A stretch of 52,139 nucleotides of DNA from Escherichia coli (GTDB lineage: Bacteria > Pseudomonadota > Gammaproteobacteria > Enterobacterales > Enterobacteriaceae): the NCBI RefSeq assembly GCF_003334405.1, contig NZ_QOWM01000022.1. One strand, 5' to 3'. Positions 48,001 to 52,139 of this stretch are shown one piece after another. Position numbers: made by a program. How positions within the stretch are numbered: position 1 is the stretch's first letter; every line of letters starts with the position of its first letter.

Positions 48001-51000
48001 CAGGTCGGACTTTATATCCCCTCAAATATCGTTGAAAAGCTTTTTCCATCTATCAATCATACTCGCGAACTGAACCCTTCAGTCTTCCTTACTGCGCATG
48101 TATCATCCCATGATTGCCCTGATACCCAAGCACGCGCAATTTATTACAACAACCGTTATTTTGGTAAGACCCGAAACGAAAAAAGAATTACGCGCTGGGG
48201 GAGAGGAAGTCCATTACAGAACCCTGAAAATACAGGAGCCCTCACAATTCTTGCTTTCAGGTTAAACGAACAGAACACTGACTGTTCCGAGGTAGATATA
48301 TGGGTCTGCGTCAATCCCGATGAAGAGGATATCATCGAGTCTGCTATTGGCGAAATCATACCTGGAACCCTAATTTCCGGCCCTGCCGGACAAATTTTGG
48401 GCGGATTGTCTCTTCAGCAAACTCCAGTAAATCATAAATATGTTATTCCTGAAGACTGGAAGAAGCGTTTTCCTTCTGGAAACGAAATTATTCAATATGC
48501 TGCTGGCCATTATGCTAAAAACTCCAAGGATCCAGATGAGCAACTGATTGACCGTCGGCGTGTCGAGTATGATATTTTTCTACTCGTCGAGGAATTACAT
48601 GTTCTTGATATTATTAAGAAAGGATTCGATTCTGTAGATGAGTTTATTGCATTAGCCAACTCTGTCAGTAATCGACGTAAATCAAGGGCAGGCAAATCAC
48701 TTGAACTTCACCTAGAGAAGCTTTTTATCGAGCACGGACTACGGCATTTCTCCACTCAGGCAGTTACTGAAGGTAATAAAAAACCAGATTTCCTGTTTCC
48801 TTCAGCAGAGGCATATCATAACGTTGAATTTCCTGTAGAAAACTTACGTATGCTGGCAGTAAAGACCACCTGCAAAGATCGCTGGCGTCAGATACTGAAT
48901 GAAGCAGATAAAATCCATCAGGTACATTTATTTACACTGCAAGAAGGTGTTTCTTCAGCACAATACCGAGAAATGAAAGATGCGGGTGTCAGACTCGTTG
49001 TACCATCAACTTTACATAAAAAATACCCAGAAGCAGTTAGAGAAGAATTAATAACGCTCGGAGCATTCATTACTGAGCTGATAGAGCTTTACGCTGAACT
49101 ATCATAGGCTGACTCCCGGCTTAAAAGGCCGGGAGATGTTCTCAAGGCTGCCCAGTCTTACCAGCATCAGCAGAAACAGCTTTGAGGATATAGGGTTCCA
49201 GAAGTCTGGCAACAGCTTCAAATACTGGCACCACAACTGAGTTACCGAACTGCCGATATGACTGAGTATCTGAAACCGGAATACGGAATGGTTTCCCTCC
49301 AGGTTTTTCAAATCCCATAAGGCGTGCGCACTCTCGGGGAGTCAGCCTGCGTGGTCGACGAGCCTGATTACTCTCATTCATAAAGTCAGCCTCTCCCGTT
49401 GCCATATCCCAACCACGATCAATAAGAATTTCTGATCCGTCTTTGTGATATCTGGCAGAAAGTGTGCGTGCAATGCTTTCCTTATTCTCAGGATTGACCA
49501 ACCCAAAGCCAAAACCATTCCCCTTGGCTGCATGCTTTTTGGCGTAGTTATAAAGGTACTCCCATAGTTTTGGCGTAAGTATATATTTACTGTCGACTAC
49601 AGGCTCCAGCAATTCACCAAATGATGGGCGGTGTTCCGGATAAAAACGACTGATATCACGCAAGGTAAACCCCTTGTGAATATTCAGATCTCGTCTAAAT
49701 CCGACCAGAACAATGCGTTCACGATGCTGAGGCAAAAAATGCTTCCCATCGATAATCTTTGGATCGTTTTTTCCCATTTCTGCAGCATCGGCAACTTCGT
49801 AGCCCAGCTCGTCAAGGGTCTCCATAATGACTTTGAAAGTTTTACCCTTATCATGGCTCTTCAGATTTTTGACATTTTCCAGCACAAAAATTGCCGGTTT
49901 TTTTGCTCGTATAATACGTGCCACGTCAAAAAAAAGTGTTCCTTGTGCTTCACATTCAAAACCATGCGCACGACCAAGTGAGTTTTTCTTACTAACACCA
50001 GCAAGGCTAAATGGCTGGCACGGGAACCCCGCAAGAAGCACATCATGATCCGGCACATGCTCATCAATATATGCATAAGCATCCGTTTCCAATACATCGG
50101 TTTTATCACTCAGCGTGACTTCCCGAATATCGAGATTGAATTTATGCACCTGTTCATCGTTAAACCAGTTGGCCTTGTATGTACGCACAGCATCTTTATT
50201 CCATTCACTGGTAAAAACACACTGGCCTCCAATGGCCTCAAAACCTTTCCGTATCCCTCCAATTCCAGCAAATAAGTCAATGAAGCGGAAAGCATATTCC
50301 GGATGGTTTGCAGGTGGTTCTGGTAGCATCTTACGCAGAAGAGACTCTTCTACTGAAGTCAACGATTTTGGTAAACACTTGCCATTAATCCAGCGGTTAA
50401 TGGTTTCACGGCTCCACTCATTTTTTCCGACTTTTCTCAGTAATTCAGCCACATACTTCTGATCATAGATTTCCAGCACTTTCTCGATAAGCTTTTTATC
50501 ATTTTCCTGTCGCAGCTTTTCTTCCGCCTCGGCTTCCTTCAGCAGATGCTGTGCCAACACTTCAAATTCAGACATAATTCCTCCAAGGGGTCTAATGGGT
50601 GAAACTTTATCACTCATTCAACCCAGAAGGAAATGTTTTATCTGGATATTTAAACAGTGACTACAACGTAATCTAGCACTGGTGATGCTTTGTTAGGCAT
50701 AGAGAATCATTCTATATACGACTAATGACAGAAAAACAGCAGACAAGTAGTTTGTTCATAAATTAACGCATACTATGTGTCTACGGTTTTCGAGACCGGT
50801 CCAATCATCAAACGAAACATAAAATTAGCTCACATTATGAGGAAAAGTATCTTTTTTGTACTATGTAAATTCAAAGGCTTAGCCTCATTTCTCCGATGGT
50901 TTTCTCAACACTACTGGTTGTGAGCCCTTGCAATGATCATTAATATACGTCTCACAAATAATTCTTCATAGATATTGCAAAATGGATATTACTGAGTTTC

Positions 51001-52139
51001 CTTCTGGAGTAATTGAACACCTTGGCTGGTATGTATACCGATTGATTGATCCGAGGGACGGAAGCACCTTCTATGTAGGGAAAGGCAAAGGTAACCGCGT
51101 ATTTGCCCATATGCGCGGTGAAGTGGCAGCGACTGATGATGACGAGTTACTGAGCAACAAGCTAAAGCAAATTAGAGAAATAAGGTTAGCAGGACTTGAA
51201 GTTATCCATGTCATCCATCGACACGGAATGACTGATGAAAAGACGGCGTACGAAGTTGAAGCAGCACTTATTGATGCCTACCCTGGGTTAACGAATATCA
51301 TGAATGGTGCTGGCAGCAATGAATTCGGCGCCGCGCATGTCAAAGAGTTGATAGCAACATATCAGCCCGAAACCATAACATTTCATCATAAAGCATTAAT
51401 GATATCCGTTAACAGAAGTGCAAAGGATTCAGAGCTTTATGATGCGGTTCGATTTAGCTGGCGCATTAATGTCTCTCGCGCCAGCCAAGCAGAAATCATT
51501 CTTGCTACTGTAAGGGGGATCGTTCGAGGGGTTTTCATTGCTGATAAATGGCTCAAATCAACACGTGAAAATTTCCCTTCGTTGAAATACTGGGACGAGG
51601 ATCCTGACTTTGAGGCAACACAAAGTTCGCGCTATGGTTTTGAAGGTCGAGAAGCCCCACCTGAAATAGCAAATCTTTATCTTGGAAAAAAAATACCAGA
51701 TGAATTAAGAAAAAAAGGAGCTATGTCCCCGGTCCGTTACTCACCTAATTTTTGAGTCTTTAAGTGATAAGCATAAACCGCAGCACGTCATGCATACGTC
51801 GTGTCTGCGGTTTTTCTTTTTTGCTTACACGGTGTCTGGTTCTTCTGGCCACTCAATATCCGGTGCAGTTGATGTATCAACACGGTTCAGCAACACCCGA
51901 TACTTTTTCCAGGCTTCCAGCAATGAGGTTTCTTCCTCCGTTGCGATTTCCAGATCTACAGCATCCTGAAGTGGCGCAATATGCTCACTGGCTACCTGCA
52001 TCAGGCTGTTTTTTGTTTCTTCCGCCTCCCGGATCCGGAACAGTTTTTCTGCTTCTGCATCTTTCACCCAGGCTGTGCCGTTCCACTTCTGAAACTCCCC
52101 TTCCGGCGATAACCAGGTAACATTTTCCGGTAACGGACC

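Follow-up and report, generated by a model that had tools for sequence, protein, structure and literature searches.

Enzymes of the PvuRts1I/AbaSI family consist of a PD-(D/E)XK nuclease and an SRA-like domain, and the cut geometry of PvuRts1I is similar to that of CMoRE (Cytosine Modification Restriction Endonuclease), the enzyme to which we assign, with high confidence, the gene at positions 50982–51755 of a 52,139-nucleotide stretch of Escherichia coli DNA (contig NZ_QOWM01000022.1; hereafter the window, meaning the whole stretch that was analysed). Vassallo et al. 2022 (PMC9519451) were the first to find the system, PD-T4-3, in ECOR68, the attribution to ECOR68 being taken from PMC12923530; the main text of the 2022 paper mentions 'a GIY-YIG nuclease' and does not contain the name PD-T4-3. 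It was renamed CMoRE by Liu et al. (Nat Commun 2026; PMC12923530), and the system in the window is thus one that is already known, from a family for which a defence phenotype has been shown, the biochemical mechanism worked out and crystal structures solved.

In the experiments of Liu et al., CMoRE lowered the plating of phages T2, T4 and T6 by ~5 orders of magnitude, acting by direct and not abortive defence, and degraded T-even genomic DNA as well as PCR products bearing 5-hydroxymethylcytosine (5hmC) or glucosyl-5hmC (5ghmC), while DNA with unmodified cytosine or 5-methylcytosine (5mC) was neither bound nor cut (PMC12923530). T4(hmC) was still sensitive to the enzyme, and T4(C) escaped. Cleavage required Mg2+ or Mn2+ and occurred between two modified cytosines (CN11/N9G), leaving 2-nt 3' overhangs, and the cuts were spread over the whole T4 genome without a strict sequence requirement. 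The protein is a tetramer whose N-terminal domain, a nuclease of the GIY-YIG type, has one additional tyrosine (GIYxY-YIG; Y17, Y19 and Y31), and a 15-residue acidic loop between helices alpha2 and alpha3 covers its active site; when the four consecutive acidic residues of the loop were replaced with alanine, the enzyme cut ordinary DNA and was toxic. In the C-terminal domain, for which the authors report no homologue by sequence or structure search, 5hm-dCTP sits on the edge and Y127 contacts the 5-hydroxymethyl group (all PMC12923530).

As compared in the same paper (PMC12923530), CMoRE and the PvuRts1I/AbaSI enzymes share separate sensing and nuclease domains, specificity for 5hmC and 5ghmC, and a cut at a fixed distance between two modified cytosines, although they are not homologous, CMoRE being a GIY-YIG nuclease joined to a sensing fold without known relatives. 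Its catalytic fold is that of the GIY-YIG domains of the UvrC N terminus, the nearest structural neighbour (PMC12923530), and of LEM-3/ANKLE1, represented by PF22945, the best sequence model; unlike these, CMoRE carries the extra tyrosine and the 15-residue acidic insertion and has another partner domain and another role. A Capnocytophaga homologue with 48% identity is also a modification-dependent nuclease, which in addition cuts Mom-modified Mu DNA. In the clinical strain NILS69 the native PD-T4-3 is active against Tevenvirinae, and a different restriction system and PD-T4-3 are reported to protect additively.

Assignment of the window gene to CMoRE

The window gene is an open reading frame (ORF) of the + strand that starts with ATG, encodes 257 aa and includes its stop codon within 50982–51755, exactly where a first-pass annotation made from the sequence alone had placed it, and RefSeq annotates the same coding sequence in matching genomes. 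Its product (WP_000355482.1), identical in DNA and protein to the copy in E. coli strain H1, matched the PADLOC PD-T4-3 model PDLC04031 (E = 7.6e-140; residues 1–256 against profile positions 1–255 of 256) and also matched phrog_5356. A search of the Protein Data Bank (PDB) aligned residues 1–257 to 9U75/9U8D (E = 5e-171) and to 9U7U/9U7Z (E = 1.6e-150), the four entries that originate from Liu et al. (PMC12923530) and that are all deposited under 'GIY-YIG domain-containing protein'. A chance ORF is excluded by the full-length match to solved structures at E = 5e-171, and the fold is settled because solved structures of a 97%-identical protein exist. The window protein differs from the E. coli O157:H7 CMoRE, the protein of entries 9U75 and 9U8D, at 7 of 257 residues (97.3% identity) and from the APEC O1 CMoRE at 38 positions (85.2% identity). 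Taken together, these results make us highly confident that the gene is CMoRE (PD-T4-3), a single-gene type IV restriction enzyme directed against T-even-type phages with hydroxymethylated or glucosylated cytosine and independent of the EcoRII genes beside it. One of the roles proposed in the first-pass annotation, a stand-alone defence nuclease, is thereby borne out, PD-T4-3/CMoRE being a validated single-gene defence system, and the RefSeq label of this type of gene, 'LEM-3-like GIY-YIG domain-containing protein', should be corrected to a CMoRE-type type IV restriction enzyme. The gene and its parts are as follows.

50982–51755, + strand: CMoRE/PD-T4-3 coding sequence (ORF; PADLOC PDLC04031; PDB 9U75)
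50982–51359, + strand: N-terminal GIYxY-YIG nuclease domain, residues ~1–126 (Pfam PF22945; published mutants; the boundary is approximate and follows the description in PMC12923530)
51135–51146, + strand: acidic run D52-D53-D54-E55 in the autoinhibitory loop (sequence; equivalent residues mutated in PMC12923530)
51360–51752, + strand: C-terminal modification-sensing domain, residues ~127–257 (full-length alignment to 9U75/9U8D and 9U7U/9U7Z; published 5hm-dCTP complex)

The GIY-YIG-like N terminus seen in the first pass corresponds to a Pfam PF22945 (LEM-3-like GIY-YIG) match at residues 28–110 (E = 3.6e-14); the classical Pfam model PF01541 was marginal (E = 0.47), and the LEM-3-like model was needed to reveal the domain. 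The C-terminal half had no Pfam or NCBIfam match, so that calling it unrecognised was fair from the sequence alone, and the NCBIfam search of the whole protein returned zero matches. The nuclease motif reads G15-W-Y17-V-Y19 ... F-Y31-V-G33, with the third tyrosine of GIYxY-YIG present, and every residue tested by published mutation is kept: Y17, Y19, Y31, Y127, the four-residue acidic run, and R80, V92 and L96, the oligomer-interface residues of the N-terminal domain. The acidic run is DDDE in the window and APEC O1 proteins and DDDD in that of O157:H7. The features by which a CMoRE protein is recognized, namely Y17/Y19/Y31, the acidic loop, full-length profile coverage and a single-gene module, were all found.

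The same searches bear on the homing nuclease that the first-pass annotation had offered as another possible role. A free-standing GIY-YIG homing endonuclease would spread by cutting a specific target in genomes without the gene, and a weak match to phrog_314 'homing endonuclease' (E = 0.0022) points in that direction, as does the label 'putative homing nuclease' that depositors have given to full-length homologues in jumbo phages. However, the Pfam scan of the window protein returned no NUMOD, IENR1 or helix-turn-helix module of the kind that marks the I-TevI type, the C-terminal domain of the published enzyme binds modified cytosine, and its modification-dependent cuts fall genome-wide on T4 with no strict sequence requirement (PMC12923530), which contradicts the proposal. 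The gene, moreover, lies in an accessory locus beside the remnant of an attachment (att) site and not in or beside a conserved target gene. We therefore consider a homing function very improbable and retain the assignment to CMoRE.

Compared with the O157:H7 CMoRE, the window protein is alike in length, GIYxY-YIG motif, acidic loop, oligomer-interface residues, Y127 and its organization as a single-gene prophage module, and unlike at seven positions (window residue first): T51A, E55D, Q169K, I172V, N197H, S200T and L201M. The two alleles are separated by 23 synonymous and 7 non-synonymous codon changes, an excess that is consistent with purifying selection. Five of the seven replacements lie in the sensing domain (Q169, I172, N197, S200 and L201) and the other two in or beside the autoinhibitory loop (T51 and E55), while 29 of the 38 differences from the APEC O1 enzyme lie past residue 126. 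This clustering, in a comparison of three sequences only, would fit a faster evolution of the recognition surface, and the five sensing-domain substitutions may possibly shift the range of modifications recognized by the window allele.

The steps of the proposed mechanism derive from experiments on the 97.3%-identical protein and are extended here to the window allele. A lysogen would express CMoRE from the gene's own promoter, and the protein would assemble as a tetramer (a dimer of dimers). The C-terminal domains of one dimer would each bind 5hmC or glucosyl-5hmC at two sites ~21 bp apart, whereupon the N-terminal GIYxY-YIG domains would cut between them (CN11/N9G) with Mg2+ or Mn2+, leaving 2-nt 3' overhangs. 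The acidic loop D52-D53-D54-E55 would cover the active site, so that weakly bound unmodified or 5mC DNA is left uncut. The expected outcome would be the direct, non-abortive destruction of incoming T-even-type phage DNA.

A self-contained module and its presumed expression

Comparison with five other CMoRE loci gave homology boundaries at 50770/50781 and 51813, and thus a conserved unit of ~1.03 kb (50781–51813) made up of ~200 bp of upstream sequence, CMoRE and a terminator-like hairpin, with no other gene. Its two flanking parts are the following.

50781–50981, + strand: upstream region of ~200 bp that travels with the gene and is presumed to hold the native promoter (homology to CMoRE loci in unrelated contexts begins at 50770–50781)
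51777–51813, + strand: G+C-rich hairpin with a T-run, the right edge of the module (RNA folding; homology ends at 51813)

A simple terminator scan missed the hairpin at 51777–51813, which was recovered by RNA folding: the segment 51750–51830 folded at −26.1 kcal/mol (z = −4.26), and none of 200 shuffled sequences folded as well. The hairpin was found 3' of CMoRE in each of the six comparison loci and probably serves as the terminator of CMoRE, possibly also as that of the convergent gene tfa. The boundaries at 50781 and 51813 together with the hairpin describe a moron in the sense of Juhala and Hendrix, an autonomous promoter–gene–terminator unit between phage genes that some members of a group of related prophages carry and others lack. 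The earlier suggestion of a moron was accordingly sound as regards a self-contained 1.03-kb module at a prophage end, the promoter being a candidate. A consensus promoter scan gave nothing above threshold upstream of CMoRE, where neither a canonical sigma-70 promoter nor a Shine-Dalgarno sequence was detected; read by eye, a weak candidate has a −35 element TTGTGA (50918–50923), a 17-nt spacer and a −10 element TAATAT (50941–50946), with 8 of 12 matches.

Several points weigh against an active CMoRE in this strain. The function of the exact window allele is inferred from the 97.3%-identical O157:H7 protein, the substitutions in the sensing domain and the loop could slightly alter its specificity or stringency, and its expression is assumed, since the upstream region gave no canonical signals; in addition, the defence given by the APEC O1 homologue under its native promoter was weak (PMC12923530). 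An inactive or silent passenger copy in a prophage would account for the last two of these, and several of the host's prophages appear degraded, with insertion sequence (IS) elements and pseudogenes. Nevertheless, the ORF is uninterrupted, other genomes carry copies with the same DNA sequence, the substitutions are mostly synonymous with all functional residues present, and the 200-bp upstream region is conserved across contexts. Furthermore, the O157:H7 and Klebsiella genes are active from their native promoters (PMC12923530), as is the native copy of NILS69 in its own strain. A silent copy thus appears unlikely, and a functional CMoRE remains the reading that we favour.

The EcoRII neighbours and the prophage end

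CMoRE is flanked in the window by three genes, the first two of which are neighbours outside the CMoRE system.

47893–49107, + strand: EcoRII-type type II restriction endonuclease, 404 aa (PADLOC REase_II PDLC03467, E = 1.9e-234; RefSeq 'type II restriction endonuclease')
49142–50575, − strand: EcoRII/Dcm-type cytosine-5 methyltransferase, 477 aa (NCBIfam NF007772, 927 bits against a cut-off of 710; PADLOC MTase_II, E = 3.8e-230)
51825–52139, − strand: 3' part of the prophage tail fibre assembly gene tfa, which continues past the window end (105 open codons; stop codon at 51825–51827)

The gene is divergent from the methyltransferase and convergent with tfa, whose homologue carries the annotation 'tail fiber assembly protein' and, in matching genomes, precedes stf, lom and J. 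The first-pass description of this neighbourhood was accurate in its convergent tfa, a − strand ORF, and also in its 406-bp AT-rich spacer, which has 35.5% GC when the methyltransferase begins at the 477-aa RefSeq start (50575); with the start of the longest ORF (50617) the spacer is 364 bp.

From this arrangement the first-pass annotation had raised a third role, that of a Vsr-like nickase functionally coupled to the EcoRII-type C5-methyltransferase, which would nick the T:G mismatches left by deaminated 5mC at CCWGG, and it had proposed a survey for conserved linkage with such methyltransferases or with tail-fibre genes. The CMoRE gene was found in 838 of 5426 complete E. coli genomes (at least 95% nucleotide identity; ~15%). 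A junction probe reaching from the 5' end of the methyltransferase gene across the spacer into the 5' end of CMoRE, counted when at least 80% covered, was found in 242 E. coli genomes, so the same divergent arrangement does recur; however, ~70% of the gene copies have no methyltransferase neighbour, its place being taken elsewhere by an AraC regulator, an acyltransferase, a DinI pseudogene or a tRNA remnant. In genomes without the junction, homology begins at probe position ~506, that is, window position 50781, and since this breakpoint falls inside the spacer, CMoRE and the methyltransferase belong to separate modules. The Pfam scan returned GIY-YIG families alone and no Vsr (PF03852), and the 97%-identical enzyme ignores unmodified and 5mC DNA and makes double-strand cuts in 5hmC/5ghmC DNA only (PMC12923530). 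The likeness to Vsr and its link with dcm is confined to a nuclease gene adjoining the gene of a CCWGG-type C5-methyltransferase, whereas sequence, fold and substrate are different and the linkage is not conserved. Because the neighbours vary and the published enzyme is inactive on 5mC DNA, an obligatory partnership is ruled out, and we give the Vsr-like proposal practically no credence; CMoRE is independent of the neighbouring methyltransferase. On the tail-fibre side of the loci examined, tfa, pin or a tail-fibre gene stood beside CMoRE, with an acyltransferase between CMoRE and tfa at one locus.

As 5mC is not a substrate of CMoRE, the enzyme and the EcoRII pair are compatible, and it is plausible that they are complementary, with unmodified CCWGG as the target of EcoRII and hypermodified cytosine as that of CMoRE.

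At the CMoRE loci examined, the gene always lay at a prophage end, with tfa, the pin invertase gene or a tail-fibre gene as its neighbour on the tail-fibre side, apart from the one locus just mentioned. The att side was variable: the EcoRII restriction-modification pair occupied it in the window and in strains VTB97585v and H1, an AraC-family gene in O157:H7 TW14359, O157:H7 F1273 and strain E1648 (a further difference between the window and the O157:H7 CMoRE), and a DinI pseudogene adjoining tRNA-Pro in strain LD91-1. The locus of strain H1 runs ssrA, EcoRII R, EcoRII M, CMoRE, tfa, stf, lom and J, and is the accessory end of a lambdoid prophage on its att-proximal side. The presence of CMoRE on prophage ends in ~15% of complete E. 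coli genomes bears on the prediction of T-even resistance in phage therapy.

Copies of a ~37-nt hairpin (CCGCAGCACGT..GCATACG.CGTG.CTGCGGTTT) were found at 47607–47643, 50764–50789 (degenerate) and 51777–51813, where they bracket the EcoRII block and the CMoRE block, and the homology breakpoints lie at or inside them. After the first copy, at 47641–47664, come the final ~23 nt of ssrA (TTCAACTCCCGCCAGCTCCACCA). This core was recognized only through comparison with strain H1, in which the same EcoRII cassette stands directly after an intact ssrA gene, while in the window the fragment has the pao locus as its neighbour and a gene for transfer-messenger RNA (tmRNA) is absent, which gives the fragment the appearance of a relic or hybrid att site. 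Neither tRNA nor tmRNA was detected in the window by ARAGORN or by Rfam at gathering thresholds, and a permissive Rfam scan of 47300–47950 yielded only sub-threshold noise, tmRNA scoring 9.5 bits. The left edge of the CMoRE module (50781–50800) retains ~15–20 nt of a tRNA-Ser fragment (CGGTTTTCGAGACCG...), and in O157:H7 TW14359 a 57–62-nt piece of tRNA-Ser (positions 5761–5822 of comparison locus L002) immediately precedes the module, a position that fits a prophage att remnant. These features suggest that cassettes may have been stacked stepwise at prophage att ends. A broader model, which we put forward only tentatively and think rather doubtful, is that the prophage end is a place of exchangeable defence cassettes, delimited one by one by the hairpin copies and by the ssrA and tRNA-Ser att-core remnants, with the hairpins as recombination joints, and that stacked CMoRE and EcoRII would be co-selected against phages with unmodified and with hypermodified cytosine.

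Other defence genes also adjoin CMoRE-bearing prophage ends in related genomes, namely an AAA ATPase and DUF4435 pair in a P4-like satellite (NZ_CP178711), an Avs2 gene (strain E1648) and genes of an ABC-three-component system (O157:H7 strains). They include positions 2177–4133 of comparison locus L001 and 10344–12774 of comparison locus L005, both beyond the window. A search of 50,697 isolated phage genomes gave no CMoRE homologue above 60% identity. Full-length homologues with 37–45% identity over residues 1–254 were present in the lytic jumbo phages ON287376, MK994515, MF285618, JN627160 and MN642089, whose hosts are Serratia, Pectobacterium, Pantoea, Klebsiella and Pseudomonas (phage OBP) and in which the gene is annotated as a homing nuclease or as hypothetical; these homologues may serve phage-against-phage competition.

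Minor features of the window

Between paoD and the EcoRII pair, a gene at 45397–46815 (− strand) encodes a 471-aa protein that matched PADLOC PD-T7-1 (E = 3e-69; residues 113–445) and PD-T7-5 (E = 2.6e-35). Pfam and NCBIfam gave no match for it, and the first ~110 residues were unmatched; it is probably a third defence gene of the same island. A 155-aa ORF at 46920–47390 (− strand) lies in a low-GC stretch (37–40%) and had no Pfam, NCBIfam or PADLOC match; it is also conserved beside the EcoRII cassette of NZ_CP178711, under the annotation hypothetical. Weaker look-alikes of the ~37-nt hairpin were seen at 28674–28710 and 38052–38088.

Rfam 'IS009' was matched twice on the − strand, at 51868–52066 (229 bits) and at 38491–38690 (202 bits). 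The first match lies inside the coding region of tfa, and the second on a decayed tfa remnant (77% identity over 114 nt, with stops in all frames) beside a 204-aa ORF. Since both matches in the window fall on tfa sequence, this family seems to model the sequence of the tail-fibre-assembly gene and not an independent RNA.

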